A stretch of DNA of 32,000 nt, from NCBI RefSeq assembly GCF_000025685.1, contig NC_013967.1, positions 2,640,001 to 2,672,000 on the forward strand, read 5' to 3'. The translations under genes were made by a program, and so were the position numbers. Position 1 is the first letter of the stretch. Each line of letters begins with the position of its first letter. Below are positions 6,860 to 26,093 of the stretch, in pieces. The notes beneath the pieces were generated by a model. The model saw only the letters and a list, made by a program, of their open reading frames with translations. It did not search any database and was not told the DNA's origin. This stretch comes from Haloferax volcanii DS2 (GTDB lineage Archaea > Halobacteriota > Halobacteria > Halobacteriales > Haloferacaceae).

Positions 6860-6934
<75 letters not shown>

Positions 6935-7091
6935 TCTCAAGGCTTCTACCGCCTGTTTTTCCGTGGTCTAGGAGAAACAGCAAATGGTCCATTTAGGCCA
7001 AACACGTTCGTCGTACCGTTCCCGTAGCACCGTTGTTCCCCCTTGTAGACGGTCGTCTGTTGCCACAACAGGGGTTTGGAGGCGACAGTAG

Positions 7092-8246: not shown

Positions 8247-8255
8247 TCCTCACTC

Positions 8256-8266
8256 TTTTTTCTTTT
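8256..8266 (+). terminator. T-run (TTTTTTCTTTT) right after the int1 stop; archaeal-type terminator candidate
   Basis: Oligo-T tract 10 nt after the stop codon at 8244..8246. Confidence 0.4.
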
Positions 8267-8729
8267 ATAAGGACCAAGTACAGTAGATGTTAATGTAGAA
8301 AGCTTCCTTGGAGATTGAGATTGTGATAGATATGGTTCAACGGTTCGTCCTCGAAATACTTTCAGCATTTCTCGTCCTCACGTTGAACCGTTCCCGCAAA
8401 CAGCACAGTACAAATCACAACGTATCTGATAGGTGGAATTGTGACCGCCCTCGGGTGGGGTAGGGTTTTATGAGCCGATTTTGCTGTCTAGCGATATTGG
8501 GGAATTTATTGCCGCATTGTTTGTTAGGCGGATTGGGATTATTTAACATCGATTAGAAATCCGTCGAGTGGGGTTCTAGTGGTGACTACCCTTGGGGTTT
8601 TGTCTCCAAGATGGTGGTTAGCTACTCTAAATATAACCAGTACCAAATTTTGCAAACAAATTGAATAGCTATCAAAATTATTAAATAATTTGGAATCGGT
8701 GATAAACCTCCGCCGTATATTACGATTCT

Positions 8730-10127
8730 CAGTACCTCACAAAGCCGTTTAGTTAGAAGGTCTGCTTGCTGAAGATGTGTCCAACAACCAGCAAACAGAC
8801 GATGAAATCCACGAGGACCAGCTCCTTAACTTCCTCGTCAACTCTCTTGACGAGGAAGTTGCTCTCTCACTCGCTGAAAACGCTGAACTCGATGCTGAAG
8901 ACATCTACGAGGTCCTCGTCGGCGCCTGCGCCGACGGGACCTCGGTCTCTACACTCTGCAAGAGAAGCGAAGATGCACCTCACGAAAACTCGGTTCTCTA
9001 CCATCTCCGCACCAAGTTCGACCTCGAGACGCTCGAACAAATCGGGAACACGCTCCTCCAGAAAGACGTTCTCGACGTCCTTCCCCAGCAGGTGGAGGTC
9101 TGCGCAGACCTCCACCTGCGGCCCTACTACGGCGACGAAGACGATACAGACGGCCTGTATCACTCACAAGCGAAGCGTGGAACCACCGCGTTTCACGCGT
9201 ACGCGACACTGTACGCACGCGTGAAGAACAAACGCTACACGCTGGCGGTGCGCCGTCTCGAAGACGGCGACACCGCCAGCAGTGTCCTCGCAGAGTTCCT
9301 CGGTATTCTCGACGGCCTTGACCTCGGTGTCAAGGCCGTCTATCTTGACCGCGAATTCTACGACAGCAAGTGTTTGACGCTGCTTCAGGCGCACAACCAC
9401 GCCTACGTCATGCCGATCGTCCGCTGGGGACGGACGATCAAGCGAGAACTCTCAGAAGGGTGGAGTCGCGTGATTCAGCACAGTCTGACAGCGAAACTCG
9501 ACGGTCACAGCTGGACCGTCGAGTTTCCCGTCTACATCGACTGTACCTACCAGAACGGACGGTACGACGAACATGGCGTGGCGCGTCACGGCTACGCCGC
9601 TGACGCGCCGTTCATCGACTCACCACGGGACGCTCGATACCACTACGCGAAACGCTTCGGTATCGAGGCAAGCTATCGACTCTCCGAGCAAAGTATCGCG
9701 ACGACCTCGACACAAAATCCGGTCGTACGGCTGTTGTACGTCGTGGTGAGCCTGCTGTTACAGAACGTCTGGCGGTATTTGCACTGGGAGTACGTGGCGA
9801 CGCCCCGCCGTGGGGGGCGTCGCCTCTGGGAGTGGTCGTTCAAGGAGTTCATCAATATGGTCCGTCGAGCAGCGTGGACGGCCCTCGCGGTGCGTCGGGC
9901 CGTCCCCGCGAACCGACCACCAGACGACCGGTTCCACCGGTAACTCCCGACCGGGCTAGCCAACAGTGGGAGTGGCGACGCTGTCGCGTCGGCGGCAGCC
10001 GCCGCCGACAGCGACGGCTCTCCGCCGATCCGTCCATGATTCTGTCGTCGAGACCGCCAATGCAACCGCTCGGCCACAGAATTCAGGCTTCAGAGACAGC
10101 TAGGCGAGGATGCTTTGTGAGGTACTG
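8730..10127 (+). mobile_element. ISH3/IS4-superfamily insertion sequence, copy A (1398 bp)
   Basis: 16-bp terminal inverted repeats: CAGTACCTCACAAAGC (8730..8745) and GCTTTGTGAGGTACTG (10112..10127). One transposase ORF. A near-identical second copy lies at 11879..13279. Size and IR length resemble the ISH27/ISH51 group as I recall it. Confidence 0.85.
8777..9943 (+). CDS. DDE transposase of IS copy A
   Basis: 388 aa with candidate DDE residues (ADLHLRPYYGD, AVYLDREFYD, YAKRFGIEASYR = Y-x2-R-x3-E). The track start is GTG and the true start is uncertain. Confidence 0.85.
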   Translation: MSNNQQTDDEIHEDQLLNFLVNSLDEEVALSLAENAELDAEDIYEVLVGACADGTSVSTLCKRSEDAPHENSVLYHLRTKFDLETLEQIGNTLLQKDVLDVLPQQVEVCADLHLRPYYGDEDDTDGLYHSQAKRGTTAFHAYATLYARVKNKRYTLAVRRLEDGDTASSVLAEFLGILDGLDLGVKAVYLDREFYDSKCLTLLQAHNHAYVMPIVRWGRTIKRELSEGWSRVIQHSLTAKLDGHSWTVEFPVYIDCTYQNGRYDEHGVARHGYAADAPFIDSPRDARYHYAKRFGIEASYRLSEQSIATTSTQNPVVRLLYVVVSLLLQNVWRYLHWEYVATPRRGGRRLWEWSFKEFINMVRRAAWTALAVRRAVPANRPPDDRFHR

Positions 10128-10634: not shown

Positions 10635-11738
10635 ATGAGCGATCTGGACGAACTCCCGGTCGTCACCGACGCCTCGAAGGAGTACTTGAACCCCCGCCAG
10701 TTGCTCGACTACCGAGCCGAACGAGAGGCGTGTCTCGACTGGCTGCTCACCTTCGGGAAGAAACCGGACGAGGCGAAGGGCTACGCGCTCGGGACCATCA
10801 AGACGGGTGCCTACCGGATGGACCGGTTCTACCGGTTCGTCTGGGAGGACGAGGGCGGGTACACCGCGAACGTCACCCACGAGCACGCCGACGCTTGGAT
10901 GAAACACCTCGCACGCGGGAACTCGGGCGCGGCACACAAACGCAACTGCCAGAAGTCGATCAAGCGCCTGTTCAAGTGGCGGCAGCACGAGCACGGTCTC
11001 GGGGAGTGGACACCGGACATTACGTTCGCCGCGGACTCCAGCACGAACCCCCGTGACTACTTAACGCGCGAGGAACGCGCGAGTGTGCGCGAAGCCGCGC
11101 TCGAATACGGATCCGTCCCGAACTACGATGGTCTCGCTCCGGCCGAGCGAGACCGGTGGAAGCAGTACCTCGCCCAGCGGTTCGAGAAACCGAAGTCCGA
11201 GGTCACGCCGGACGACTGGGACCGAGCGAACGGGTGGAAGGTCCCGTCGCTCGTCTGGACGAGCCTCGACGCCGGGCTCCGACCCATCGAGGTAGAACGC
11301 TCCACGGTCGGTTGGGTCGATACGGACAACGCGGTCCTCCGGATTCCGAAGGAGGAGAGCTCGAAGAACCGAGATCACTGGGTCGTCGGCCTCACGTCCA
11401 GGACCGCGCAGGCGCTCGACAACTGGCTCGAAGAGCGCGAGACGTACCCCGAGTACGACGACACGGACGCGATCTGGCTGACGCGGAAGTCGAACCCGTA
11501 CGGCACGGCCACGCTTGCATACCTGCTGCGGCAGCTGTGTGACATCGCCGGAATCGACACGACGCACCGGAAGATGTCGTGGTACGCGATCAGACACTCC
11601 GTCGGGACGTACATGACCCGGGAGGAGGACCTCGCGGCGACGCAGGCACAGCTCCGCCACAAGAGCCCCGAGACGACGATGAAGTACGATCAGGTGCCGG
11701 TCGAGGATCGTCAGGACGCCTTAGATCGGATGGGGTAG
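10635..11738 (+). CDS. tyrosine recombinase / phage-type integrase (int2), paralog of int1
   Basis: 367 aa, colinear with int1 (roughly half of residues identical by eye). Same catalytic pattern: AGLRPIEV, WYAIRHSVGT, LRHKSPETTMKY. GC content is host-like. Confidence 0.85.
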   Translation: MSDLDELPVVTDASKEYLNPRQLLDYRAEREACLDWLLTFGKKPDEAKGYALGTIKTGAYRMDRFYRFVWEDEGGYTANVTHEHADAWMKHLARGNSGAAHKRNCQKSIKRLFKWRQHEHGLGEWTPDITFAADSSTNPRDYLTREERASVREAALEYGSVPNYDGLAPAERDRWKQYLAQRFEKPKSEVTPDDWDRANGWKVPSLVWTSLDAGLRPIEVERSTVGWVDTDNAVLRIPKEESSKNRDHWVVGLTSRTAQALDNWLEERETYPEYDDTDAIWLTRKSNPYGTATLAYLLRQLCDIAGIDTTHRKMSWYAIRHSVGTYMTREEDLAATQAQLRHKSPETTMKYDQVPVEDRQDALDRMG

Positions 11739-11878
11739 CTGTAGATGACGGCACTGGCAAAATGTCTCTGCAATAACTGAGGTGCGCTGTTATTCCAAAG
11801 CGCTCCCACCTTGGCAGCGCAGACGTGAGTCAACCGTAAGTTTCCCTCGGGACCCCCCCGAGACCCCTGCGGAAGACT

Positions 11879-13279
11879 CAGTACATCACAAAGCCTGTTA
11901 GTTGAGACGTCTGCTTGCTGAAGATGTGTCCAAGCAACCACAGCAAGCAGACGATGAAATCCACGAGGACCAGCTCCTTAACTTCCTCGTCAACTCTCTT
12001 GACGAGGAAGTTGCTCTCTCACTCGCTGAAAACGCTGAACTCGATGCTGAAGACATCTACGAGGTCCTCGTCGGCGCCTGCGCCGACGGGACCTCGGTCT
12101 CAACGCTCTGTGAGAGAAGCGAAGATGCACCCCACGAAAACTCCGTTCTCTACCATCTCCGCACTAAATTCGATCTAGAAACGCTCGAACAGGTTGGCAA
12201 CATGCTCCTCCAGAAAGACGTTCTCGACGTCCTTCCCCAGCAGGTGGAGGTCTGCGCAGACCTCCACCTGCGGCCCTACTATGGTGACGAAGACGACACG
12301 GACGGCCTGTATCACTCACAAGCGAAGCGTGGAACCACCGCGTTCCACGCGTACGCGACGCTGTACGCACGCGTGAAGAACAAACGCTACACGCTGGCGG
12401 TGCGCCGTCTCGAAGACGGCGACACCGCCAGCAGTGTCCTCGCAGAGTTCCTCGGTATTCTCGACGGCCTTGACCTCGGTGTCAAGGCCGTCTATCTTGA
12501 CCGCGAATTCTACGACAGCAAGTGTTTGACGCTGCTTCAGGCGCACAACCACGCGTACGTCATGCCGATCGTCCGCTGGGGACGGACGATCAAGCGAGAA
12601 CTCTCGGAAGGGTGGAGTCGCGTGATTCAGCACAGTCTGACGGCGAGACTCGACGGTCACAGCTGGACCGTCGAGTTTCCCGTCTACATCGACTGTACCT
12701 ACCAGAACGGACGGTACGACGAACATGGCGTGGCGCGTCACGGCTACGCCGCTGACGCGCCGTTCATCGACTCACCACGAGACGCTCGATACCACTACGC
12801 GAAACGCTTCGGTATCGAGGCAAGCTATCGACTCTCTGAACAAAGTATCGCGACGACCTCGACACAAAATCCGGTTGTACGGCTGCTGTACGTCGTGGTG
12901 AGCTTGCTGTTACAGAACGTGTGGCGGTATCTGCACTGGGAGTACGTGGCGACGCCCCGCCGAGGCGGGCGTCGCCTCTGGCAGTGGCCATTCAAGGAGT
13001 TCATCAACATGATCCGGCGGGCAGCGTGGACGGCCCTCGCGACGCGTCGGGCCGTCCCCGCGAACCGGCCACCGGACGACCGGTTCCACCGGTAACTCCC
13101 GACCGGGCTAGCCAACGGTGGGAGTGGCGACGCTGTCGCGTCGGCGGCAGCCGCCGCCGACAGCGACGGCTCTCCGCCGATCCGTCCATGATTCTCTCGT
13201 CGAAACCGCCAATGCAACCGCTCGGCCACAGAATTCAGGCTTCAGAGACAGCTAGGCGAGGATGCTTTGTGAGGTACTA
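11879..13279 (+). mobile_element. ISH3/IS4-superfamily insertion sequence, copy B
   Basis: IRs are CAGTACATCACAAAGC (11879..11894) and GCTTTGTGAGGTACTA (13264..13279), each with 1 mismatch to copy A. The body is near-identical to copy A and in the same orientation. Confidence 0.85.
11902..13095 (+). CDS. DDE transposase of IS copy B
   Basis: 397 aa. Differs from the copy A protein at only a few positions plus the extreme N-terminus (TTG track start). Confidence 0.85.
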   Translation: MRRLLAEDVSKQPQQADDEIHEDQLLNFLVNSLDEEVALSLAENAELDAEDIYEVLVGACADGTSVSTLCERSEDAPHENSVLYHLRTKFDLETLEQVGNMLLQKDVLDVLPQQVEVCADLHLRPYYGDEDDTDGLYHSQAKRGTTAFHAYATLYARVKNKRYTLAVRRLEDGDTASSVLAEFLGILDGLDLGVKAVYLDREFYDSKCLTLLQAHNHAYVMPIVRWGRTIKRELSEGWSRVIQHSLTARLDGHSWTVEFPVYIDCTYQNGRYDEHGVARHGYAADAPFIDSPRDARYHYAKRFGIEASYRLSEQSIATTSTQNPVVRLLYVVVSLLLQNVWRYLHWEYVATPRRGGRRLWQWPFKEFINMIRRAAWTALATRRAVPANRPPDDRFHR

Positions 13280-13664: not shown

Positions 13665-14663
13665 TCAGGCGCTCACCCCCGGTGGATCGTAGACTTCCTC
13701 TCGGACGAGCATGTAGTACATCGAGACGAGCAGTTTTCGTGCCGTCGCGACGATCGCTTTTTTCGAGTTCATTCGACGATTCAACCGGTGGAAGAACGTG
13801 CTTAGATACGCGTCTTTACACGTGTACACGGCTGAGTACGCACTCTGAACCAAGATCCAGCGAACTCGTCCTGAGCCGCGTTTCGAGATACCACCCTCGA
13901 TCCGCGAGTCACCGGACTCGCGGATCGTCGGGTTCAGTCCCATGTAACTCACGACCTCTTTGTGGCCGTCGAACCGATCGATCTCACCCAGTTCAGCGTA
14001 GACCAGCAACGCGGAGTAGTAACTGACACCGGGGATGGTCATCAGCAGCTGGGTCTCCTTCAGAGACCCAGCGCGCTCCTCAATCGCCGCTTCCAACTGA
14101 GTCATCTGCTCGGTTAGCGTCTCGACCACGTCGAGATACGAGTCCAAGAGACTGTCCCACGGAGACGGGAGCGAGAGTTCCCGGAGGAACTCTCGTCCCT
14201 CGACACTCAGCGGTTTTACCGTCTGAGTGATGCCGTTATCGGCGAGCAAGCCGTGGATTTTGTTGGCGAACTTGGTCCGATCTTCGACCAAGGTCTGTCG
14301 CCCGCGCACGAGTGCGCGGGCTTCCCGAATCTCGTCGGTAGGAACGTAACTCTGCGGAACAGAGTTCAGCCGGAGCAGCCGCGCGAGTTCTTTCGCGTCG
14401 ACGCGGTCGGTTTTCTTGTCTGACCGAGCGATGAGCGTCAGTTTGCCTGGATGAGCGACGGTTACGTCCAAGTACTCCGCGAGAGTATCGTAGACGTGGT
14501 AGTAATTGCTGGTCGCCTCGATTACTGCACGAGAGCCAGCGTATCGCTGAGCGAGGTCGTCGAGGTTCGCGTTTTTGACGCGAACCTCTTCGACAATCTC
14601 GCCCTCGAGGTCCATTACTGCCACCTGTGCGTATCGTTTGTGTAGGTCGATTCCGAGGTACAT
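13665..14663 (-). CDS. IS110-family (DEDD) transposase
   Basis: 332 aa. N-terminus MYLGIDLHKRYAQVAV (the RuvC-like DEDD start typical of IS110). C-terminal part LLMTIPGVSYYSALLVYAELGEIDRF..GLNPTIRESGDS..GISKRGSGRVRW. Confidence 0.9.
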   Translation of the reverse strand: MYLGIDLHKRYAQVAVMDLEGEIVEEVRVKNANLDDLAQRYAGSRAVIEATSNYYHVYDTLAEYLDVTVAHPGKLTLIARSDKKTDRVDAKELARLLRLNSVPQSYVPTDEIREARALVRGRQTLVEDRTKFANKIHGLLADNGITQTVKPLSVEGREFLRELSLPSPWDSLLDSYLDVVETLTEQMTQLEAAIEERAGSLKETQLLMTIPGVSYYSALLVYAELGEIDRFDGHKEVVSYMGLNPTIRESGDSRIEGGISKRGSGRVRWILVQSAYSAVYTCKDAYLSTFFHRLNRRMNSKKAIVATARKLLVSMYYMLVREEVYDPPGVSA

Positions 14664-15035: not shown

Positions 15036-15110
15036 ACTTCATCCAGTATCCTGAGACGGCGTGAAACCGCCACCCGGTGGTGCAACACCGGGCAACAGGT
15101 GCTGCCTCAG

Positions 15111-15413
15111 ATGACAGCAAGAGACACTAATCGTGTCTTGAGTGATAACTCTGACCCTCGGTCGGTCGAGGGCGCGGAGATCGTCACCGAACACGATACA
15201 CGAAGCAGACGAATCGTCCGACACGCGCGGGAGAACGGCGGGACGACGACCCGCAGAGACCTCGTTGCGAAGACGGATCTCACCGCGAGTGAACTCGGAG
15301 AACGCCTACAAACGCTCGAAGACGGAGGGTACGTAGACCAGATCAGCGACGGGGACCACGAACTGGTCGTGCTGACGTTCCGCGGGGAACACCTCGCCGG
15401 AGGGTACCGATGA
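15111..15413 (+). CDS. small winged-helix DNA-binding protein (operon gene 1)
   Basis: About 100 aa. wHTH-like segment TTRRDLVAKTDLTASELGERLQTLEDGGYVDQI. ATG at 15111 is preferred over the GTG track start at 15099. The stop overlaps the next start (ATGA at 15410). Confidence 0.65.
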   Translation: MTARDTNRVLSDNSDPRSVEGAEIVTEHDTRSRRIVRHARENGGTTTRRDLVAKTDLTASELGERLQTLEDGGYVDQISDGDHELVVLTFRGEHLAGGYR

Positions 15414-15793
15414 GCGACGCCGAGCACGCGTACGCCATCCCCATGGACCCCGACGACGCGTTCCGGGCAATCTCGAACAGCAGGCGTCGCCAGGTGATCC
15501 TCTCGCTCGCACAGTCCGAGAGCGCGCTCACGGCGTCGGAACTCGCCGTGGAGATCGCGGCGATCGAGAACCTCGTCGATCCGTCCGAGGTAACGAGCGA
15601 GCAGCGGACCCGCGTCTACGTCTCGCTGGTCCAGTCTCACCTTGAGACGCTCGACCGGGCGGGCGTCGTCGAGTACGACGAGCGGGGGAAGCGAGTCTCG
15701 CCGACCGACGCCACGGAACCGGTCGCCGGACACGTCCGCCGGATCACGACGGCGTGTTACAGGCCGGACGCGGGGAGGGGCGATGAGTCGTAG
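15410..15793 (+). CDS. ArsR-like HTH protein of a haloarchaea-typical small regulator family (operon gene 2)
   Basis: 127 aa. FRAISNSRRRQVILSLA..LTASELAVEIAAIEN..RTRVYVSLVQSHLETLDRAGVVEYDERGKRV is the pattern of a common haloarchaeal HTH family. Confidence 0.7.
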   Translation: MSDAEHAYAIPMDPDDAFRAISNSRRRQVILSLAQSESALTASELAVEIAAIENLVDPSEVTSEQRTRVYVSLVQSHLETLDRAGVVEYDERGKRVSPTDATEPVAGHVRRITTACYRPDAGRGDES

Positions 15794-16568
15794 CGACGGG
15801 TACCGAACCTTCCCGACGAGCGTTCGGAGAGAAATCCTGAAGCGGGACGATTTCCAGTGCCAGGTCTGCGGACGCCTCGGCCCCGAGCGCGGCGGGAACA
15901 TCGACCTCGAAGCGCACCACATGCGGGAGGACCCCGAGTACGTATATCGGGACCACGCGGACAACGGCACGACGATGTGCATCCCGTGTCACCACCTGAT
16001 CACCCACCGGACGACGGCCGACGACCTCCTGTTCGCCCTCGACGACGTCGCCGCCGAGGTCAACCTCCTGTACAAGGACATCGAGATCCTCGTGTACCTG
16101 TACGAGCACGGCCCCGCGACGACGAGCGAGATCCGCGAGGCGACGAGCGGTTCCGCCCGGACGTCGATCATCGAGCGGCTCTGGACGCTGATGTCCGTAG
16201 ACAGAGACGTCGATTCCCTCGACGGGCCGCTCATCGACAAAGACCTCGACACGGACGAGTGGGGGTACCCCGACGACATCGGTCGGACCGTCCGCGGACG
16301 CGTCCCCGAGGGAGAAGAGGAGTTAGTCAACCGGTTGCGGGACGAACTGCTCCGGCGGCTCCTCGATGCAGGCGTGAACCGATCGACCCTCGCGCTGTTC
16401 TTCGGTCGTTCTCGGAGAGCCACCTTCTACATCGCCAAGCGGGCCGGAGCGATCCGGGTCCCGTTCGACGACGAGTCTCACCCGGACGCGCTGATGGACG
16501 AAGACGAGTTCGACCGGGTGGTCGATGGGATGGAACGATTGTTCAGGGGTAGCGACCGGTCGAGATGA
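15783..16568 (+). CDS. HNH endonuclease domain fused to a C-terminal winged helix (operon gene 3)
   Basis: An internal ATG of track ORF 15642..16568 gives 261 aa. HNH pattern: CQVCG..DLEAHHMRE..NGTTMCIPCHHLITH. Then LVYLYEHGPATTSEIREATSGSARTSIIERLWTL. Overlaps the upstream gene by 11 nt. Confidence 0.75.
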   Translation: MSRSDGYRTFPTSVRREILKRDDFQCQVCGRLGPERGGNIDLEAHHMREDPEYVYRDHADNGTTMCIPCHHLITHRTTADDLLFALDDVAAEVNLLYKDIEILVYLYEHGPATTSEIREATSGSARTSIIERLWTLMSVDRDVDSLDGPLIDKDLDTDEWGYPDDIGRTVRGRVPEGEEELVNRLRDELLRRLLDAGVNRSTLALFFGRSRRATFYIAKRAGAIRVPFDDESHPDALMDEDEFDRVVDGMERLFRGSDRSR

Positions 16569-17452
16569 CCGGTAATTGTTCAAGGGAGATGTGTGTAGCG
16601 ACTGAGAGAACGACGACGAGTCGGAGCCGATCGATGGAACACGTACACGCGCGACATGACGAACTGCCCGGGCAGTTGACGCTGCACGTCGGCGACGAGG
16701 AACTGCTGTTGGACCGGGCTCGCCCCCGCGTTCGACCGACCGAGTTGGTGGTCGCACCCGTCGAGTTGCACAAGCGGAACGTCCAGCGGAGACTTCGTGA
16801 GCGGAGCGCGTCGAAGGGCGCGTTCGAGTTCGAGGACCCCGTGGGAGTGAGCCGGAGCGTCCTCGACGAAACGAACGTGCCGAGCAAGGCGATAGACCGA
16901 ATCGACCGCCTCGCGCTCGTGCGCTCGCTTCTGACGGAGAGCGAGTCGCGGGAGGCAGCCGGGGTATCGTTACCTTCGGGAGTCCCCTCGCGCGACCCGC
17001 AGTCCGTCGAACAGCTTCGCACCGAGGTGGAGGCGTTAACCAACTTCCACCCGGAGCGGGTCGGGGCGTGGAGGAGCGCGGCCGGGAGCTTGTACGAACC
17101 GATCGACGCCGAGAGCGAGGGGCAACTGGACGCCGCGCTCGACGTGGAGCGCGCGCTCCGAGAGCGGACGCCCAAAGCGATTTCCGAGACGGAACTCGTC
17201 CGACGAGCGACCCGTGCGATCACGGCGACGGAGGGCTCCGCGTGGACGGACGCGTATCCGGAAATCGAGCGCCTCACGCTCGTCGGTGTGAGCAGTCTCT
17301 CCGCACCGCACGCCGACCTCGTTCACTCGCTGCTGCTGGCGACGTCGCTGGAGGTTCACGTCCACTTCCGCCGGGGAACCGGGGAGTTCCTCCGAGGTCG
17401 GACGCCGGCACTTCTCGACATCGCCGGCCCGGGGAGGGAGGTGTTCGAATGA
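16565..17452 (+). CDS. AddB/RexB-like N-terminal (domain 1A-like) protein without a Walker A motif (operon gene 4)
   Basis: 295 aa. LTLHVGDEELLLDRA occupies the position of G-x-x-G-x-GKT. ELVVAPVELHKRNVQRRL resembles the AddB 'LIVPEQ..f..E..L' segment. ERLTLVGVSSLSAPHADLVHSLL resembles 'iyiDGF..ftP.E..li..L'. ATGA overlap at 16565; ATG 16634 is an alternative start. Confidence 0.5.
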   Translation: MTGNCSREMCVATERTTTSRSRSMEHVHARHDELPGQLTLHVGDEELLLDRARPRVRPTELVVAPVELHKRNVQRRLRERSASKGAFEFEDPVGVSRSVLDETNVPSKAIDRIDRLALVRSLLTESESREAAGVSLPSGVPSRDPQSVEQLRTEVEALTNFHPERVGAWRSAAGSLYEPIDAESEGQLDAALDVERALRERTPKAISETELVRRATRAITATEGSAWTDAYPEIERLTLVGVSSLSAPHADLVHSLLLATSLEVHVHFRRGTGEFLRGRTPALLDIAGPGREVFE

Positions 17453-18690
17453 CGTCGTCGAACCGGCTCTCGCTCTCGCGTCCGCTCGCAGAGACCGAGA
17501 CGCCGGTCGTCGAAGTCGTGGCGACGACCCGCCGCGAGGAAGCGCGGAGCGCGATGGCGGTCGTCGCGGCGCTGCGCGACCGGGGCGTTCCCGTCCGCGA
17601 TATCGCGGTGGTGGTCAGAGACCTCGACGCGTACGAACCGCCGTTCTTCAGGGCGGCGGTTCAGTACGGGATGGCCCCGGTGTTCTGGACGCAGCTCTAC
17701 GTCACCAGGACCCGCCCGTACGCGCTCGTCGAATCTGTCTGCGACGCGCTCGACGCGGAGGAACTCGACTCGGACACGCTCCTCCGCCCGCTCGAACACC
17801 GATGGGCCCCGGTGGAGGCGACGACGGACGAGTGGCCCGTCGAACCGGCGGCACTCGACCGGGTGAGACGAGCCCTCCCCGGGGGCTCTCGGACGCTCGA
17901 AGAGTGGACCGAGGCGCTGGAGGCGAGCGACGCGGACCCCCGCGTTCTGACGTTCGCGGACTGGCTCGGTACCGCTCCGGACCCGAGTCCTGAAACCGTT
18001 CGGTCCGTCCTGAGCGACGTCGTCGAGGGGTACGCCGAACACGGGCTCCCCGTGACGAAGGAGGCGGACTCGCCGGCACTGCTCGACACGGAGACCGACG
18101 CCCGGGCGGTCGTTCGGGTTCGGACCCTCGTCCGGCAGCTCCGTCACAAGTTCGACGACAGGCTCGACGAGGGAGCGGTCGAACGCTCGTGGGGCGACGT
18201 GGCGGAACTCGCCAACGTGATCGCCACGCAACGCCCGGGGCGACGCGAGCACTCCAACGCCCGCGCGCTGGACGTACTGGAGGCGAACGACGTGTGGGCG
18301 CTAGACGTCCCGTTCGTCGTGGCCGTCGGTCTGACTGCCGACGACTGGCATAGAGTGACCGATTCGATGGTCCCGCCGGAGTTCCAAGAGACGGTGTTGA
18401 GGGGAGACGGCGACGTCGGGAAGCTCGCGCCGAGACCGTCGTGGGTGAACGGACGCGACCGCGACCAGTTCCTCGACACGCTCGGCGCTGCCGGCGAAGC
18501 GGTCATCGTGACGCGGCACACGCAGACCGTCGACGGGAACGAAGTCTATCCATCCCCGTTTCTCGACCGGATAGACGCCCGGAGGATCAACGAATCCGAC
18601 AGACAGCGGCTGGTGAGTGAGGAACGAGAGCTGCCACCGGAGATACGACGGTTACTGCCACCGCAAGCGGAGGTGAGCGATGGTGAGTGA
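17449..18690 (+). CDS. AddB/RexB-like C-terminal (UvrD_C/2A-like) protein lacking a nuclease domain (operon gene 5)
   Basis: An internal ATG of track ORF 17068..18690 gives 413 aa, preceded by GGAGGTG. DIAVVVRDLDAYEPPFFRAAVQYGMAPVF and ALDVLEANDVWALDVPFVVAVGLTADDW resemble conserved AddB/UvrD 2A-domain segments. No PD-(D/E)XK or Cys cluster is visible. ATGA overlap with gene 4. Confidence 0.5.
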   Translation: MTSSNRLSLSRPLAETETPVVEVVATTRREEARSAMAVVAALRDRGVPVRDIAVVVRDLDAYEPPFFRAAVQYGMAPVFWTQLYVTRTRPYALVESVCDALDAEELDSDTLLRPLEHRWAPVEATTDEWPVEPAALDRVRRALPGGSRTLEEWTEALEASDADPRVLTFADWLGTAPDPSPETVRSVLSDVVEGYAEHGLPVTKEADSPALLDTETDARAVVRVRTLVRQLRHKFDDRLDEGAVERSWGDVAELANVIATQRPGRREHSNARALDVLEANDVWALDVPFVVAVGLTADDWHRVTDSMVPPEFQETVLRGDGDVGKLAPRPSWVNGRDRDQFLDTLGAAGEAVIVTRHTQTVDGNEVYPSPFLDRIDARRINESDRQRLVSEERELPPEIRRLLPPQAEVSDGE

Positions 18691-21600
18691 GGAGGAGGCG
18701 ACACCCGACGGCCCGCTCCGGTTGAAAGGGGCACAGCGGGAGATCAGGGACGAGTACTTCGCCTGCGACGCGGGGCTGTTCACGCTCAGCTGCGTTCCCG
18801 GTTCCGGGAAGTCGGCGACCGCAACTCACATCGCCGCAGAAGACCTCCTCCGTCGGTACGTCGACGGTGATCCGACCCCCGAGCTGCACGTCGCGGTGGT
18901 CTCGTTCAACAGGGACGAGGCCGCCTCGATCGTTCCCGCGGTCTGTGAGCGGCTCCGAGTCATCGTCGAACACGAGCTCGTTCCGGCCGCGTCGGAGGTG
19001 TCCGAACCGGAACTGAAGTACCTCCTCCAGCGGGTTCGTCGAGCGCCGTTCATCGGGACCATCGACAGCCTACTCAGGGGAGTCCTCCGAGAGGTCGTTC
19101 ACGACGTGGGGTTCGAGACGATGCCGTCGGTCGGAAACGAGGCGCTGTTGAAACGAGTCCACGCAGAGTGTTACGACCGAATCTCCGACGACCCGGCGTG
19201 CGCACGCCGACTCGAACGGCTGGAAGCCGCGTATCCGTCGGGTGACCACGACGCCGGCGTCGCGGAGATGCTCGAACGGGCGCTGAGGTACTGCCGCGAC
19301 CGGCGGCTCACGACGGAAGCGTTTCGGGTCGAGCTCGAACGAACGCGCGACGCGGTGTACGGAGACGGAGAGCCGGACTCGTTCGAGGACGTAGTATCGA
19401 GCGTGGAGCGCTGTCTCGGCGACTACGAGGCGGCCGGAGAGCGAGCCCGCGATTCGGTAAGCGACGTGGACCGTGGCCGCATCGTCGAAGCGGACAACGC
19501 GCTGTACCACGCGTGGGGCGCGCGTATCGAAGACCTCTGCGAGACGCTCTCGACGTACCGGGAGACCTACCGAGACGCCGTTCGTGAGTTCGGCGTCCTG
19601 TCCCACATCGACGTCTCGTACCTCGTCGACGCGTACTTCGGCGGCGAGTTCGAAGACTTCGACCGCGAGCTCCGGGACCACGTGCTCGGGAAGTACCGGT
19701 CCCGGATTCGGAGCCTCATCGTCGACGAGGCGCAGGACGTCTCGGCGATACAGCACGCCGCGCTCTCGCACCTCGTCACGCCCGAAGTGCGCGTTCTCGG
19801 CTGCGGGGACGTCCTGCAGGGAATCTACCTGTGGCGGCACGCGGACCCGTCGCTGTTCGAGTCGGCCACGACATCCGGTCGGTACCTGGGTATCGACTGG
19901 GACGTCCACGAGAACCGGACCGCGGCGACGACGTACCGCTGCGTGCCGGCGATCGCGTCCGCCGTCAACACCGTCGCGGAACCGATATTCGGCGATCCCG
20001 CCCGCGGGAACATCGGCGACCTCGATGCGGAATACACTCCGCTGGAGGCCGCGCGAGACGAGGTCGAAGAGACCGCCGTGCACGTCTCCTCGTTCACCGG
20101 CGTCGGCCATCCCGGGACGTCCACGTGGGCGAACCCCGACGGGGGACGGGGAGAGGCGAACATCCTGGCGACGCACATCTCTCGCGGTATCTCCGACGGG
20201 ACGTTCGCCGACGAGAACGGAGACCCGCTCGGGATCACCGTCCTGTTCAGGCGCAAATCGAGGATGAGCGATTACGATGCCGCGTTCGAAGCGGAGGGGC
20301 TCCGCGTCCGAAACGCGAGCGAGAACCTCTTCGACTGCCCCGCAGTTCGGGCCGTGTTCGACGTCTGTGACTGGCTCGTCGATTCGGCTTCGCCGGAGGG
20401 GACGAGGCGACTCGTCACGGAGTCGGGTCTCGGCCTCGAATCTCTCGAAGGGATCTTCGAAGCGAACGCGTGGAGTGTCGATCGCGTGCTCGACAGCGCA
20501 GACGAGGGCGCTCTCACCGAAGCCCAAAGAGAAACGCTCGCGGCGCTTCGTCGGCTCCGCGACCGCCGCGACGTCTTCGAGACGTTCCCCGCTCGGACGT
20601 ACGTCGAGGAGGTCGTCGGAGCCCTCGCGCTCAGGGCGGACCCTCACGGTGACTTCGGAGACGTCGATCCCGCGCAGCGGGTCGCAAACGCGGACGCGCT
20701 CGTCGAGACGATAGCGCAGTGGGCGGGTGACGAGCACCACTCTCTCCCCGATCTACTGGACCTCGTCGAGCCGTTCCGAGAGGAACCGGACGCCGGGCCG
20801 ACACGGCCGAGTTCCGTCGACGCCGATTACGACGTGCTCTTCCAGACGGTGCATCGCGCCAAGGGCGACCAGGACGACGTCGTCGTTATCGCGGACCCAG
20901 GGTTCAATATCTGGACCCAGGGCCCCCACGCCCAGCGCTTCGTCGCACAGGGCAACATCGCGGGGCTCGCGCCGCCGACGGACGCGAGCGCTCCCACCGA
21001 CGTCACGATCCCGCCCTTCGACGGTGGGCTGTACGACCCGAGCGACGGGTGGCAGCGCGACGTCGGGCTCCGTTGGGCGACCGCTCGATGGCGTGATACG
21101 GCTGTCCCCACTGCAGATCCCGACGTCCTCGTCGGTCCTCCGAGACTCCGCCGGTTGGCCGAGAACGAGCGGGCCGAGTCCTGGCGGCTGCTGTACGTCG
21201 CGCTCACGCGTGCGATGGACCACTTGATGATCCCGTTACCGAGGACTTTTCCCGGGGGACGCCCGCGAGACCGCTGGCTCGACTCGATCCGTGACGGGCT
21301 CCGCTTCCCGGACGGGTGTACAGAGACGTACACGCTCGCGCCGATCGAGTCGGACCCGAACAGCGAGCGGATACGGATCGGCGTCAACGACGCCGACCTG
21401 CTGGCCCGTCGGCACAGGAAGGGGAGCTCGACGCCGCTTCCCGAGGTCGCCGTGAGAGCTCCCATCTCCGATCGACTGGCTCCGTGGGTTCCTCGTTTCG
21501 TCAACCCGAGCACGATGTATCCCCTCACGAAGGACAAGGACCGATACGCGCTCGCTCACCTGCTCGGAGAACCGCTCCACACCGAGACGAACGACGTCGC

Positions 21601-22204
21601 GGAGGACCTGCCACTCGTCTTCGAGCGGATGGGCCCCGACGAGGTCGGGTCCTGCGTGCACGGGGTACTGACCGAACTCGTCAAACGCGAGGTGTCGGAG
21701 CGCGCCGTCCGATCGATGGGCGACGAGGTCAGAGACGTGTTCGACGAGGTCGTTCACGAACGCGAACCGGGTATCGGCGTCGACGAGCGGGACGGGCTGT
21801 TCGCCTTCTTCTCGGATGTGCTCGACGATTTCTTGGAATCCGACCTCTGGGCGCGGATCGCGGAGGCGGAGACCGTCGTCGTCGAGCGCCCCGTCGACGG
21901 ACTCGTGTCGCTCGGGGACGTCGAGATCGAAGTCCACGGCGAGGCGGACTTCCTCACCGTGTCTCCCTCGGGTGAGATTCACGTCACCGACGTGAAGGCG
22001 TCCCTGACCGATCTGACCGAGGAGACCCGACGCCGGTACGAACTACAGGTAGCCGCCTACGGATACCTCTTCGACCGGCAAGAGGCATCGGCGGAGCCGG
22101 TGCGACGGACCGTCGAGACGTTCGGCGCGACGCGCGAGACCGTCTCGTCGTCGTGGTCGCCGTCGATCGTCGAACGCCGGTTGTCCATGCTCACGGACGA
22201 TTGA
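18680..22204 (+). CDS. AddA/RecB-like SF1 (UvrD/Rep) helicase fused to a C-terminal PD-(D/E)XK nuclease (operon gene 6)
   Basis: 1174 aa. SF1 motifs: CVPGSGKSAT (I), VVSFNRDEAA (Ia), LIVDEAQD (II), GDVLQGIYLWRHA (III), TYRCVP (IV), VHRAKGDQDDVVVI and LLYVALTRA (V/VI). C-terminal nuclease pattern: GSCVHGVL..GEADFL..IHVTDVKAS..YELQVAAYGY. Confidence 0.85.
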   Translation: MVSEEEATPDGPLRLKGAQREIRDEYFACDAGLFTLSCVPGSGKSATATHIAAEDLLRRYVDGDPTPELHVAVVSFNRDEAASIVPAVCERLRVIVEHELVPAASEVSEPELKYLLQRVRRAPFIGTIDSLLRGVLREVVHDVGFETMPSVGNEALLKRVHAECYDRISDDPACARRLERLEAAYPSGDHDAGVAEMLERALRYCRDRRLTTEAFRVELERTRDAVYGDGEPDSFEDVVSSVERCLGDYEAAGERARDSVSDVDRGRIVEADNALYHAWGARIEDLCETLSTYRETYRDAVREFGVLSHIDVSYLVDAYFGGEFEDFDRELRDHVLGKYRSRIRSLIVDEAQDVSAIQHAALSHLVTPEVRVLGCGDVLQGIYLWRHADPSLFESATTSGRYLGIDWDVHENRTAATTYRCVPAIASAVNTVAEPIFGDPARGNIGDLDAEYTPLEAARDEVEETAVHVSSFTGVGHPGTSTWANPDGGRGEANILATHISRGISDGTFADENGDPLGITVLFRRKSRMSDYDAAFEAEGLRVRNASENLFDCPAVRAVFDVCDWLVDSASPEGTRRLVTESGLGLESLEGIFEANAWSVDRVLDSADEGALTEAQRETLAALRRLRDRRDVFETFPARTYVEEVVGALALRADPHGDFGDVDPAQRVANADALVETIAQWAGDEHHSLPDLLDLVEPFREEPDAGPTRPSSVDADYDVLFQTVHRAKGDQDDVVVIADPGFNIWTQGPHAQRFVAQGNIAGLAPPTDASAPTDVTIPPFDGGLYDPSDGWQRDVGLRWATARWRDTAVPTADPDVLVGPPRLRRLAENERAESWRLLYVALTRAMDHLMIPLPRTFPGGRPRDRWLDSIRDGLRFPDGCTETYTLAPIESDPNSERIRIGVNDADLLARRHRKGSSTPLPEVAVRAPISDRLAPWVPRFVNPSTMYPLTKDKDRYALAHLLGEPLHTETNDVAEDLPLVFERMGPDEVGSCVHGVLTELVKREVSERAVRSMGDEVRDVFDEVVHEREPGIGVDERDGLFAFFSDVLDDFLESDLWARIAEAETVVVERPVDGLVSLGDVEIEVHGEADFLTVSPSGEIHVTDVKASLTDLTEETRRRYELQVAAYGYLFDRQEASAEPVRRTVETFGATRETVSSSWSPSIVERRLSMLTDD

Positions 22205-22443: not shown

Positions 22444-23394
22444 ATGACCGAATCGGACCCCGCGGAACTCCCACCGCCGAACGAGGGGACGCCGCCGCTC
22501 GACGCCGCGGTCGCGGTGGAGTGGTGGTTCGAGTTCGAGGAGGACGGACGGCCGAAGCTCGACACGTTCCACGGCTTTCACGACGCCGAGAAGATCGCGG
22601 ACGGAGATCTTCCGGAAGTCGAAGACAGCGAGGTAGTCACCGCGACCGGTGCCCCCGTCGATTCGAACGGTGCGCTCGAAGGGGACGCGGGAGACCCCCG
22701 CCACGTGTTCCTCACGCATCGAGAGGCGCTTTCGCGCGGTATCGACCCGTGTACCAGTTGTTTCCCGCGGTACGCGACCGACCGTCGTATCGAGAGGGAG
22801 CGAGGAGACGACGGGCTCCTCACCGAACCGGGCGTCGAGGGTGTCGTGTTCAAGCTCTCCACCCGGTACGACTTGGAGTCCGACTGGACCGTCGATTCGC
22901 TTCACGATTCATACACGTCGATGCTGTACCGCGCTCGCGCGGTTCGTAAACACGCCGGGTCCGCCGGTGGGCGGCTTCGCGTCTCGTACATGCCGATTCG
23001 GCGGTGTGACTACGCGTCGTTCGAGCAGGCGATGGCCGCGGAGCCGTCGATGGCACACGTGTCCAAGCTCAGGTCGATACAGCCCGACGAACTGCCAGCA
23101 GTTCGTGATCGATTCGGCGACGACGCGCTTCGAACGCAGGTCGTCCACGAGCACCGCGTCACGGACACGGCCGACACGAGACCGCCGATACTCCACGAGT
23201 CGGAGAGTCCGCCCTGTGGATACGAACGCGATTCGCCCCTCTGGGGCGGGGAAGAGGACGAAGAGATTCGGGAGATGTTCGAGGATGTCCGACCGACGGT
23301 CGCCGACGTCATCGAACAGGGTAACGTGGTCCGGTTCTGTGAGACGTGTTTCCCGGAGCTCGCGTCGTGGGACGAGGACGCTATGGACGAGTAG
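22444..23394 (+). CDS. acidic hypothetical protein with two C-x-x-C-F-P motifs
   Basis: 316 aa with strongly acidic, haloarchaeal-type composition. DPCTSCFPRY and RFCETCFPEL lie about 200 residues apart and could be a split zinc-binding site. No family recognised. Confidence 0.6.
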   Translation: MTESDPAELPPPNEGTPPLDAAVAVEWWFEFEEDGRPKLDTFHGFHDAEKIADGDLPEVEDSEVVTATGAPVDSNGALEGDAGDPRHVFLTHREALSRGIDPCTSCFPRYATDRRIERERGDDGLLTEPGVEGVVFKLSTRYDLESDWTVDSLHDSYTSMLYRARAVRKHAGSAGGRLRVSYMPIRRCDYASFEQAMAAEPSMAHVSKLRSIQPDELPAVRDRFGDDALRTQVVHEHRVTDTADTRPPILHESESPPCGYERDSPLWGGEEDEEIREMFEDVRPTVADVIEQGNVVRFCETCFPELASWDEDAMDE

Positions 23395-23427
23395 TTCCCT
23401 CGACCGCTCCCGTCCGATAGAAGAGCG

Positions 23428-23700
23428 CACCTCGTTTCCTGACTTCAGCCTTCCGGGCACCTGGTTTCCTTACTGGGGGTTTTGGAACACCTCGTTTCCT
23501 CACTGAGGGTAGACCCCGTTTCCGCACTGGGAGGATTTCGAGCGCTTAACGTCCTTCTGAAGACACCACCTCGTTTCCGCACTGGGTGTTTTCCGGACAC
23601 CACATTTCCGCACTGAAGGTGACCCCGTTTCCGCACTGGATGTTCTGGGGCACATCATTTCCGCACTGAGGCCTCACCTCGTTTCCTCACTGGGACATCG
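23428..23700 (+). repeat. array of nine direct iteron-like repeats, consensus CAC(C)TCGTTTCC(G/T)CACTGRG
   Basis: The (G/A)TTTCC cores begin at 23434, 23464, 23494, 23518, 23573, 23604, 23627, 23657 and 23681. All have the same orientation, with spacings of 30, 30, 24, 55, 31, 23, 30 and 24 nt. The array lies between convergent genes. Confidence 0.85.
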
Positions 23701-23715
23701 AGTTTGAGCGCACGA

Positions 23716-24333
23716 TCACACCTTCAGCAGATGGTCGTAGATTCGCTCGGTCGTCTGGATGCTCCTGTGACGAAGGCGATTACGAACGTCGTAGAGCGAG
23801 TTCCCTTCCTCTTCGTTCATCATCCGGTAGGCGACGCCGTGCCGGAGGGCGTGCGGCGTGACGTCGCCGGGAGTCCCCCTACTCCCATCAAGCCTGAAGG
23901 GGCGAATCTCCGCCTTTTCGGCTATTTTGTGGATCATATTACGGACACCCTGTTCGGAGATGCGATCGGAAGAGCGCGATGGAAAGAGCGCCGGTGTGTC
24001 CTTCCACCGGTTGGTGAGATACGAAGACAGCAGTCGCGTGGTGTCGTCGGAGCATTCGAGCGTGACCGGCGGCGGCGAGTGCTCGTTGGGGTAGTCCTTC
24101 TGGACCTCGGTCGGCAGGTAGAGTTCCGAGTTGTCGTTGCGAAGGAACTCGACGTCGACGCGGACGAGTTCGCCGACGCGGAGTCCCGTGTCGTACATCG
24201 CGGTCACGATGGCTTCGTTGCGTTGCTGTAGGTACTCAGCACCGGTCGTGTAACACGCCGAGCGGAGCGCCTCGACTTGGTCGGGTGTCACCCACACTTT
24301 CGCTCGAACTTTGGAGTTTGCATATTCGCTCAT
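23716..24333 (-). CDS. small tyrosine recombinase (int3), catalytic domain only
   Basis: 205 aa. TGLRVGELVRV (Arg), TPHALRHGVAYRM (H-x-x-R), RLRHRSIQTTERIY (His..Tyr). Confidence 0.8.
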   Translation of the reverse strand: MSEYANSKVRAKVWVTPDQVEALRSACYTTGAEYLQQRNEAIVTAMYDTGLRVGELVRVDVEFLRNDNSELYLPTEVQKDYPNEHSPPPVTLECSDDTTRLLSSYLTNRWKDTPALFPSRSSDRISEQGVRNMIHKIAEKAEIRPFRLDGSRGTPGDVTPHALRHGVAYRMMNEEEGNSLYDVRNRLRHRSIQTTERIYDHLLKV

Positions 24334-24678: not shown

Positions 24679-26093
24679 GTCTTAGGACCATTGGTGTTCG
24701 GTTAAGCACTGGATCGCCTCCTGAAGGCCTCAGCTACTCGTTCGTTGAGTAAGAGCCGCGATTTCTCTGGTTGGCGGGCGTCACGAAACAGCAGTTCCGA
24801 CAGGTTCGGCGGTGGATGGCCGAACGACTGGGCCAGATCTTCGAGCATGAGCTGGGCGAGAGACCGGAAGGTCTTCGCCCAGCGTTCTCGCGGAAACACT
24901 GTCTCTGGGAACAGCTCCTGAAACACCCCGAGCAAGGCTCTGCTGACCGTCAGCGTCAGCAGAGCCGCCACCACTAACAGCTCCACGATCGCTGGATCAC
25001 TCGTCTGGAATTTCTCCAGCCCATACAGCGACTTCAGTTCCCGGAACACCAACTCCACTTCCCACCGCAACCCGTACAGCGCCCCGACCTGCCTTGGAGT
25101 GAACTCATCGGGCAGATTCGTCACGTACAGGTGGTAGTCGTCGGTGTCCTCGTTGCGGACACCGACGACGCGAAACTCCATCGAATCCGTTGATTCCTTC
25201 CCAGCGTATGCCCGCCGTTTGAACTCGATCTCTACCGTTACGTCGATGATCTCCCGACTGAGATCTTCCAGAACGTCCCGAAGACGACGCTCTGGCAAGG
25301 AAATGGCGCGCCCGCGCCATTTCCGTCGCTCTCCAACGATCAACGGATTCGCGTTCGACTTCAGCCGACTCAGGAAGAACCCGCCGTTCTCCTCGATCAA
25401 CGCGAAGCGGCGGAAACTGTAGAAGCCCAGATCGAACAGTAACAGCCGGCCTCGTAGCCAACTCCCGGTGCGGAGTTGGCTGCTCTCGTGGGTGCGTTCA
25501 TCGGTGAGCTGGAACTGCTCGATCGTCTGCTTGGTCGCGTTCTGCACGAGGTGGAGTTTCGCGCCGGATTGACCCGAGTGAGTGGCTGGAAACGAATCGA
25601 GGAGCCGATGCAACCTGAACACGGTTGCATCGGCGATCAGTACGTCTCGAAACAGCTCGAACTGTGGCGCGATCGTGTGAGGAACCGCGACCTCCTCGAG
25701 AGCGTGCTCGAGGAGGTCGTTCAACAGTGCTGCGAGGGCCGGCGTGAACCGATCGTAGAAGCTTGAGCGGGCAACGGTCTGGTTGGTTGCTGCGGAGTAC
25801 GCCCGTTGAAAGCCGGCGATAGTTCGGGCTTCGCCGTCGACGGCGAAGCCCATGATGAGCGTCCAGACGAGCATCGTGATGTCGATTTTCCGGTCACGCT
25901 GGACGACATCGCGCTCGCGCGCGATGTCTTCGATTAGCTCGGTGGGAAACAGGGAAGTCAACCGTCGTCGTATGAGATCCGGGGAGAGTTGGTTTAGCAC
26001 ATTCTCTCCCCACGCGGTCTACAACGATAGCTTCGTCACTAGAGCGCCGTCTGTCGGTTTCTCCGCTTAACCGAACACGGATGGTCTTAGGAC
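24679..26093 (-). mobile_element. IS4-family insertion sequence (about 1415 bp)
   Basis: Imperfect 29-bp terminal IRs: GTCTTAGGACCATTGGTGTTCGGTTAAGC (24679..24707) and GCTTAACCGAACACGGATGGTCTTAGGAC (26065..26093). A single transposase ORF whose stop lies inside the IR. Confidence 0.85.
24702..26000 (-). CDS. IS4-family DDE transposase
   Basis: 432 aa. LIADATVF and LLLFDLGFYS supply the Asp residues. YGLRWEVELVFRELK matches the IS4 Y-x2-R-x3-E-x6-K signature. Confidence 0.9.
   Translation of the reverse strand: MLNQLSPDLIRRRLTSLFPTELIEDIARERDVVQRDRKIDITMLVWTLIMGFAVDGEARTIAGFQRAYSAATNQTVARSSFYDRFTPALAALLNDLLEHALEEVAVPHTIAPQFELFRDVLIADATVFRLHRLLDSFPATHSGQSGAKLHLVQNATKQTIEQFQLTDERTHESSQLRTGSWLRGRLLLFDLGFYSFRRFALIEENGGFFLSRLKSNANPLIVGERRKWRGRAISLPERRLRDVLEDLSREIIDVTVEIEFKRRAYAGKESTDSMEFRVVGVRNEDTDDYHLYVTNLPDEFTPRQVGALYGLRWEVELVFRELKSLYGLEKFQTSDPAIVELLVVAALLTLTVSRALLGVFQELFPETVFPRERWAKTFRSLAQLMLEDLAQSFGHPPPNLSELLFRDARQPEKSRLLLNERVAEAFRRRSSA

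Follow-up and report, generated by a model that had tools for sequence, protein, structure and literature searches.

Three overlapping genes within a 32,000-nucleotide stretch of Haloferax volcanii DS2 (NC_013967.1, positions 2,640,001 to 2,672,000; this whole stretch is referred to below as the window) raise the question of whether an archaeon encodes a helicase-nuclease of the AddAB type and, if so, what has become of its AddB-like subunit. To our knowledge, archaea are usually said to have no AddAB-type DNA-end helicase-nuclease. An original prediction, made from the sequence of the window, had proposed that two small genes upstream of an AddA-like gene are the halves of an AddB-like partner that has lost both its ATP-binding site and its nuclease. 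The three genes, numbered 4, 5 and 6 in window order and all on the plus strand, are here considered probably to encode a reduced AddAB/RecBC-type helicase-nuclease with a split, P-loop-less and nuclease-less AddB-like partner.

Gene 4 (16565..17452, +) is a 295-aa open reading frame (ORF). Its start is ambiguous, because most homologs, like GenBank entry ADE03573.1 (272 aa, from 16634), begin at an internal ATG at 16634 and many others retain a conserved N-terminal extension beginning MTDNxS, as found in the longer form from 16565. Gene 5 (17449..18690, +) is a 413-aa ORF, 100% identical to ADE03020.1, and shares with gene 4 an ATGA stop/start overlap at 17449..17452 (+), a candidate termination-reinitiation site, with a Shine-Dalgarno (SD)-like GGAGGTG at 17437..17443 (+), 5 nt upstream of the gene 5 ATG. 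Gene 6 (HVO_2827; 18680..22204, +) encodes an AddA-like protein of 1174 aa with a UvrD helicase and a PD-(D/E)XK nuclease; its ATG at 18680 is preceded by the SD-like GGAGGTGA (18669..18676, +), and it shares 11 nt (18680-18690) with gene 5, the two genes overlapping likewise in loci L001, L003 and L004. Genes 4 and 5 are probably HVO_2825 and HVO_2826, only the name HVO_2827 being confirmed. Elsewhere in the window, the ORF at 28164-29114 (-) has a full-length match to the Pfam family HVO_2833_C together with N-terminal winged helix-turn-helix (wHTH) domains, and is probably HVO_2833 itself, which is consistent with gene 6 being HVO_2827.

The AddB-like character of the two small proteins was apparent from their predicted structures. 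AlphaFold2 models built from family alignments gave predicted local distance difference test (pLDDT) values of 87.3 for gene 4 and 84.2 for gene 5, and AddB was the first PDB match of both in Foldseek searches. For gene 5 the first match was 3u4q_B (E 5.9e-15), followed by UvrD, PcrA, Rep, RecC and AdnA, and for gene 4 it was 4cej_B (E 9.4e-5, TMq 0.60), followed by RecC and UvrD; chains of both AdnA and AdnB were among the significant matches of these models. The secondary structure elements of the gene 4 model run beta-alpha-beta-alpha-beta, helical insert, beta-alpha-beta-alpha, the 1A-1B-1A pattern, and those of gene 5 follow the 2A-2B-2A pattern. The segments VVVRDLDAYEPPFFRAAVQYGMAPVF and VLEANDVWALDVPFVVAVGL, which had been likened to landmarks of the 2A domain, are present in gene 5. 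Its residues 261-271 (QRPGRREHSNA; window ~18229-18261) are nearly invariant and form the best conserved stretch of the family, modelled with pLDDT <50; this loop may become ordered only upon binding of DNA or of a partner subunit.

Profile comparisons extended the structural matches through a chain of haloarchaeal relatives. In an exhaustive search, the gene 5 profile matched 107 proteins and, outside its own family, reached acidic proteins of ~1100-1190 aa at their residues ~300-716 (E 1e-17 to 1e-4), which themselves match the TIGR02773 addB model at model positions ~300-390. Two of these proteins, P0297 and P0299, are strong matches to AddB models, P0299 spanning model positions 3-687 (E 2e-52). 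In hhalign comparisons with the haloarchaeal full-length AddB-like proteins, gene 4 scored 97.9% (E 6e-13, residues 15-265 on 3-280) and gene 5 scored 99.5% (residues 23-387 on 314-708), so that the two lie collinearly on a single full-length protein; gene 5 also scored 99.5% against the canonical AddB-like set (E 8e-23), and the haloarchaeal full-length proteins scored 100% against that set. The proposal of an AddB-like partner in two overlapping ORFs was thus borne out in its coordinates, in structure and in profile-profile alignment. A fold of this kind appears to have been noticed before for the first half: all 83 gene 4 homologs carry a precomputed assignment to Pfam PF26510, 'Halo_UvrD_like', among them P0121, which is 94% identical to the window gene 4 and represents its 90%-identity cluster; the local Pfam copy, which lacks this model, gave no match. 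By these assignments the gene 4 family corresponds to PF26510, and the name of the entry implies that its curators saw a UvrD-like fold.

The two catalytic centres predicted to be missing are indeed missing. Walker motifs, A as well as B, are absent from gene 4 and from its whole family, both in the alignment and in the model, and gene 5 has none either. The family consensus at the expected position is LTLHVGxEExLLERA, with no GK[ST]; beta1 of the model is followed by three residues only before the helix begins, and there is no acidic Walker B after the strand at 213-219. The LHVGDEELL that had been pointed out at this position is present, and in a weak alignment with the canonical set HVGDEE falls, with low confidence, on the RSGKT P-loop of P0299. 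Gene 5 terminates ~25 residues past the last 2A element, corresponding to about residue 710-720 of AddB-like proteins, and contains neither a PDDEXK match nor a CxxCx5C motif; a single cysteine is invariant in gene 5 (C98) and none is in gene 4. The whole of the AddB linker and Fe-S nuclease region is missing from gene 5. The haloarchaeal full-length AddB-like proteins carry CxxCx5C, the AddB iron-staple signature, at the C-terminus and have no Walker A. Because these full-length proteins also lack Walker A, the P-loop was lost earlier than the nuclease and before the split. In its ATP site, gene 4 resembles RecC rather than AddB; in Bacillus subtilis, AddB has kept its Walker A, which makes the Chi complex more stable (PMC3321194).

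That the two halves might simply be the debris of one gene was weighed against the conservation of their junction. When each GTDB species was scanned through one genome, 54 loci emerged, all within Halobacteria, and the junction was analysed by ORF and hidden Markov model (HMM) searches at 57 loci with both halves. The 4-nt RTGA overlap was found in 55 of these 57 (22 ATGA and 33 GTGA), the remaining two being fused, and is kept down to ~35-39% protein identity (L053, L056, L057). Most loci have GGAGGTG, GGTGGTG or GAGGTGA before the overlap despite differing C-terminal peptides (EVFE, VVFES, EVNL, EGDL), and the retention of an SD-like motif where the encoded peptide varies indicates constraint at the nucleotide level. 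In word-indexed searches, all 83 homologs of gene 4 (265-300 aa) and all 159 homologs of gene 5 (~410-420 aa) were of half size. The ratio of nonsynonymous to synonymous substitution rates (dN/dS) lay at 0.18-0.31 in gene 4 and 0.16-0.28 in gene 5, with 0.23 in gene 6, and both small genes are under purifying selection.

The idea that genes 4 and 5 are a recently frameshifted, non-functional pseudogene of one ~700-aa gene does find some footing in the existence of fused relatives of ~660-713 aa, in the position of gene 5 in the -1 frame relative to gene 4, and in the ease with which one frameshifting indel could turn a fusion into an RTGA overlap. Against it stand the occurrence of the junction in many genera and down to ~35% identity, the half-size homologs of each part, the retained SD-like motif and a dN/dS of 0.16-0.31 in both halves, similar to that of gene 6, and the pseudogene explanation is accordingly given next to no credence. 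Within the clade of the window, undivided ORFs are not the rule, and this copy is no decayed version of one. The evidence instead upholds a coupled restart at ATGA behind GGAGGTG in place of a recent frameshift. H. volcanii has been shown to use termination-reinitiation at overlaps of this kind, and the products are often or typically subunits of one complex (PMC6728339, PMC10666635); the conserved ATGA/SD junction is as expected under translational coupling. Programmed -1 frameshifting to a fused product was also considered; no slippery heptamer is evident at the junction. The split point itself falls between the last 1A helix and the first 2A strand, where the linker is variable and of low complexity.

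The split is not universal in haloarchaea. The exhaustive search recovered proteins of ~660-713 aa that hold gene 4 and gene 5 collinearly in one chain, from Halarchaeum grantii, Natrialba sp. SSL1, Salinadaptatus, Haloarchaeobius, Halorubrum gandharaense and metagenomes, and such versions account for ~14 of ~34 clusters at 50% identity. On plasmid pHmuk01 of Halomicrobium mukohataei, a 690-aa fused ORF is followed by a UvrD-domain protein. Fused and split forms are alternative stable states. In a neighbour-joining tree (no bootstrap support), the two were mixed near the base, with the window in a large split clade and one fused form, P0205, nested within that clade. This mixing, with the same limit on the tree, lends no support to one ancient fission and purely vertical descent thereafter, and several fission or fusion events are likely. 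Repeated events of either kind are plausible because one frameshifting indel could turn an RTGA overlap into an in-frame fusion.

Longer relatives complete the series. Behind the full-length AddB-like protein P0265 (1140 aa), and sharing 4 nt with its gene, comes an AddA-like protein of 1315 aa, which matches TIGR02785 (2e-48) and, by BLASTP, gene 6 (8e-32). Complete haloarchaeal AddAB-like pairs, each an AddB-like protein of ~1140-1155 aa with a C-terminal CxxCx5C and then an AddA-like protein of ~1315 aa, were observed at L061 (6001-13367) and as P0266/P0321 (Halobacterium sp. NMX12-1). A nuclease-less AddB-like form of 779 aa is likewise followed by a UvrD+PDDEXK protein, and the order AddB-like then AddA-like is the same in full-length, 779-aa, fused and split versions.

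The third member of the cassette supplies the catalytic functions. Gene 6 has Pfam matches to an N-terminal UvrD-helicase (1.7e-14) and a C-terminal PDDEXK_1 (4e-10), and its best PDB sequence match is AddA 3u44_A. In NCBIfam it matches AddA, RecB and UvrD best, with scores that fall far short of the equivalog cut-offs (53.7 against 860.75 for TIGR02784, 50.5 against 707.65 for TIGR02785), and by these scores it is to be regarded as a divergent AddA relative, not an equivalog. A GSGKS Walker A, DEAQD, LLYVALTRA, a nuclease D...DxK and QxxxY are kept across 50 loci. Judged from these motifs, gene 6 provides the conserved core with its sole motor and its sole nuclease, the motor being an active-looking helicase of superfamily 1A (SF1A) with 3'-5' polarity. 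Against PADLOC-DB 2.0.0, it gave only partial, generic GajB/UvrD matches, unaccompanied by any GajA-like partner.

The arrangement of the genes argues that these three proteins belong together. Gene 6 follows genes 4 and 5 in every locus that reaches far enough (about 50 loci). The want of catalytic motifs in the two small upstream proteins could be taken to mean that they are no partners of gene 6 at all, and are independent degenerate helicase remnants acting, for example, as regulators or as a toxin-antitoxin-like pair. The invariable grouping and order of the three genes, the overlapping or abutting of both junctions, and the AddA-like gene that always follows fused and full-length relatives make this very improbable.

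The changes leading to the proposed enzyme can be set out. The AddB-like partner has lost its Walker A/B ATP site and its entire C-terminal Fe-S nuclease domain, and has been cut in the linker joining the RecA-like domains 1A and 2A to yield gene 4 (1A/1B) and gene 5 (2A/2B). The two halves would be produced in fixed proportion by termination-reinitiation at the RTGA overlap behind the SD-like motif, and would then reassemble into the scaffold of an inactivated helicase. As AddB and RecC do, this scaffold would dock on the AddA-like subunit, take the 3' strand leaving the motor and perhaps read DNA sequence. The most likely outcome is an enzyme with one motor and one nuclease that would work on the ends of double-stranded DNA and come nearest, in function, to RecBC without RecD. 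The heterotrimer, its activity on DNA ends and any Chi-like recognition would all follow by analogy with the known enzymes.

Several observations weigh against this reading of the cassette as a reduced AddAB/RecBC-type enzyme. In direct sequence searches, genes 4 and 5 had no significant match in the local Pfam copy, NCBIfam or PADLOC, and neither single sequences nor family profiles matched anything among PDB sequences; the AddB link therefore depends on predicted structure and on the chain of profiles. Gene 5 scored 8.7 bits against the curated NCBIfam AddB cut-off of 903.7 and gene 4 had no match to that model. The alignment of gene 4 with the canonical AddB-like set, collinear as it is, reached only 5% (E 0.007). 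In B. subtilis AddAB, the nuclease domain of AddB and its Fe-S cluster provide duplex contacts and stability (PMC3321194), and a partner lacking this domain may have another way of binding ends, or may not act on them at all. The cassette contains no second nuclease or RecD to account for the 5' strand. Finally, the 149 flanking ORFs of 37 loci revealed no consistent association with defence or repair.

The three-polypeptide machine with one motor and one nuclease, as originally predicted, holds for the gene content of the conserved core, its assembly into a complex being inferred, and is qualified by the gene immediately upstream. An HNH-type nuclease with a C-terminal wHTH (~260 aa; 15786..16568, +; weak HNH matches) has its stop overlapping the 16565 ATG of gene 4 as ATGA, and shows weak similarity to PtuB, to type II restriction endonucleases and to the HNH domain of IscB. 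Because this gene adjoins gene 4 here, 'one nuclease' applies to the conserved core and not necessarily to the whole operon of the window. The HNH-wHTH gene is upstream in nine loci only, the window locus and eight others; its protein could serve as a second nuclease in trans in the subclade of the window, and was rejected as a family-wide obligatory replacement nuclease given that only these nine loci carry it. Further upstream, the operon is headed by two small wHTH genes, DUF7343 (15099..15413, +) and DUF7344 (15410..15793, +), and all boundaries among these and the HNH-wHTH gene overlap. DUF7344 is the commonest neighbour of the cassette, in 14 loci. Neither the island of the window nor the conserved neighbourhood contains an SF1B helicase gene.

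The genomic setting bears on what such an enzyme might be for. As an accessory module that is horizontally mobile, the cassette occurs in islands and on megaplasmids, and a genome may have several copies of it. It was present on 15 haloarchaeal plasmids, and about eight genomes carry two or more diverged whole-cassette copies, some on separate contigs or plasmids (L007/L027, L011/L015, L014/L032, L008/L048, L034/L042, L040/L043, L029/L039 and L038/L049/L058). In the window, the island begins directly after tRNA-Glu(TTC) at 6860..6934, where the GC content falls to 0.45-0.51 (7001-9000), and this tRNA site probably marks the left edge of an integrated element; att repeats were not identified. 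The island includes a tyrosine integrase (10635..11738) and an integrase fragment (23716..24333, -), and within it or at its edge are transposases of the IS110 family (13665-14663, -) and the IS4 family (DDE_Tnp_1; 24702-26000, -). Identity with the proviruses Halfvol1-4 was rejected, as those flank tRNA-Pro, tRNA-Ala or tRNA-Arg or have 50% GC and the island follows tRNA-Glu. A viral origin was rejected likewise, with no match in 50,697 phage/virus records nor in IMG/VR.

A role in innate defence, in which a RecBCD-like exonuclease would act against linear viral or plasmid DNA and the split scaffold would provide Chi-like discrimination of self from non-self, draws on this accessory and mobile distribution (an island flanked by integrase and insertion sequence (IS) elements, 15 megaplasmids, multiple copies per genome), on the absence of the cassette from virus collections, and on some loci lying beside an HNH nuclease or, at L001, adjoining McrBC, Fic and a DUF1156 methyltransferase. 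Genes 4 and 5 however have no PADLOC match, that of gene 6 is generic, the flanking ORFs show no consistent enrichment of defence genes, and about eight Halorubrum loci have housekeeping neighbours (thioredoxin, aEF-1beta) in conserved synteny; a defence function is possible but less likely than not.

That same chromosomal synteny in Halorubrum speaks for a second role, as an auxiliary processor of double-strand breaks (DSBs) or replication forks and a true functional analogue of AddAB/RecBC beside Mre11-Rad50. AddAB homology throughout, a gene order as in addB-addA, and the presence in haloarchaea of complete two-nuclease AddAB-like pairs point the same way. The distribution, however, is patchy and mobile, and the 5'-strand nuclease required for 3' tails is missing. 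In the H. volcanii literature, Mre11-Rad50 is the resection machinery and no direct RecBCD or AddAB homologs are recognised (bioRxiv 10.64898/2026.05.08.723854), and HVO_2825-2827 are not mentioned in the literature searched. A role in DSB processing, slightly the likelier of the two, can be put forward only tentatively. A bolder extension of the reduced-enzyme reading would be an archaeal, mobile-element class of 'one motor, one nuclease' enzymes that fills the gap in the series of AdnAB, AddAB and RecBCD and whose two-piece, ATP-independent scaffold serves as a Chi-like reader, destroying incoming linear DNA and sparing or recombining that of the host. This is a speculative and rather improbable proposition which, if true, would also have the enzyme feeding CRISPR spacer acquisition in H. 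volcanii, now ascribed only to Mre11-Rad50.

Other features of the island were noted beside these. The paralogous ORFs 8777..9943 (388 aa) and 11902..13095 (397 aa) have as their 5' ends a segment duplicated at 88-94% identity (8728-9088 and 11877-12240); neither has a Pfam match, and they flank the integrase gene at 10635..11738. Between an acidic ORF (22444..23394) and the integrase fragment, 6-8 imperfect direct repeats of ~22 nt with the core ACCyCGTTTCCGCACTG occupy 23411-23691 and look like iterons or integrase arm-type binding sites. An 82-nt tRNA-Gly(CCC) called by ARAGORN at 22648-22729 (-) lies inside the acidic ORF and is probably a false positive.

These results bear on statements made about H. 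volcanii and about archaea at large. A 2026 preprint describes H. volcanii as without direct RecBCD or AddAB homologs (bioRxiv 10.64898/2026.05.08.723854), an assumption that the cassette and the full-length haloarchaeal pairs show to be too strong. The literature searched contained no mention of HVO_2825-2827 or of a haloarchaeal AddAB, and no description of a split, P-loop-less and nuclease-less architecture. There is partial earlier recognition in automated names ('ATP-dependent helicase/nuclease subunit B') and in the Pfam entry. The complete haloarchaeal AddAB-like pairs contradict the general claim that archaea lack AddAB-type enzymes, and HVO_2825-2827 would be an overlooked variable in studies of break repair, transformation with linear DNA and CRISPR adaptation. 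Together, the relatives form a natural series from a full AddB-like protein with an Fe-S nuclease, through nuclease-less forms of ~780 and ~680 aa, to a protein split at the 1A|2A linker, and provide a clear example of gene fission maintained through a coupled overlap of 4 nt, for which natural fusions can serve as controls. The cassette also broadens the idea, drawn from AddB and RecC, of a motor turned sequence-recognition scaffold, and offers a minimal system for what an inactivated helicase partner contributes alone.

Among the known enzymes of this kind, the numbers of motors and nucleases are two and two in AdnAB, one and two in AddAB, and two and one in RecBCD. AddAB of B. subtilis (3u4q, 4cej) shares with the cassette an SF1A helicase with a C-terminal PD-(D/E)XK domain, a single motor, the partner-first gene order, and an inactivated UvrD-like 1A/1B/2A/2B partner, the structure that each of the two small proteins matches best. 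It differs in that AddB is one polypeptide of ~1000-1200 aa, whereas the partner here is two, divided at 1A|2A, with no Walker A, no C-terminal nuclease and no 4Fe-4S (C...CxxCx5C), leaving one nuclease in place of two; the cassette is moreover archaeal, resides on mobile islands and plasmids, and has AddA and AddB scores far below the curated cut-offs.

With RecBCD the cassette has in common a single active nuclease, and with RecBC lacking RecD the combination of one motor and one nuclease. RecC is likewise a helicase-like scaffold without an ATP site, and its chains were among the top structural matches, with no significant match to the RecC model. In contrast to RecBCD, the cassette has no RecD-type SF1B helicase and its partner is split into two genes, and the dead-nuclease C-terminal domain by which RecC channels the 5' strand is missing, as gene 5 stops after 2A. 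Mycobacterial AdnAB belongs to the same heterodimer-type family of UvrD-like helicase-nucleases, and AdnA and AdnB were structural matches; both of its subunits, however, keep ATPase motifs and nuclease domains, as only one subunit does here. The Pfam entry PF26510 covers gene 4 only and not gene 5, and nothing that this analysis saw of the entry connects it with an AddB-type partner or with the split. The closest sequence relatives outside the family are the haloarchaeal full-length pairs (P0265; P0321), which have the same gene order and the same P-loop-less N-terminus, and whose AddB-like member, unlike that of H. volcanii, is a single chain of ~1140-1190 aa that retains the C-terminal CxxCx5C region.

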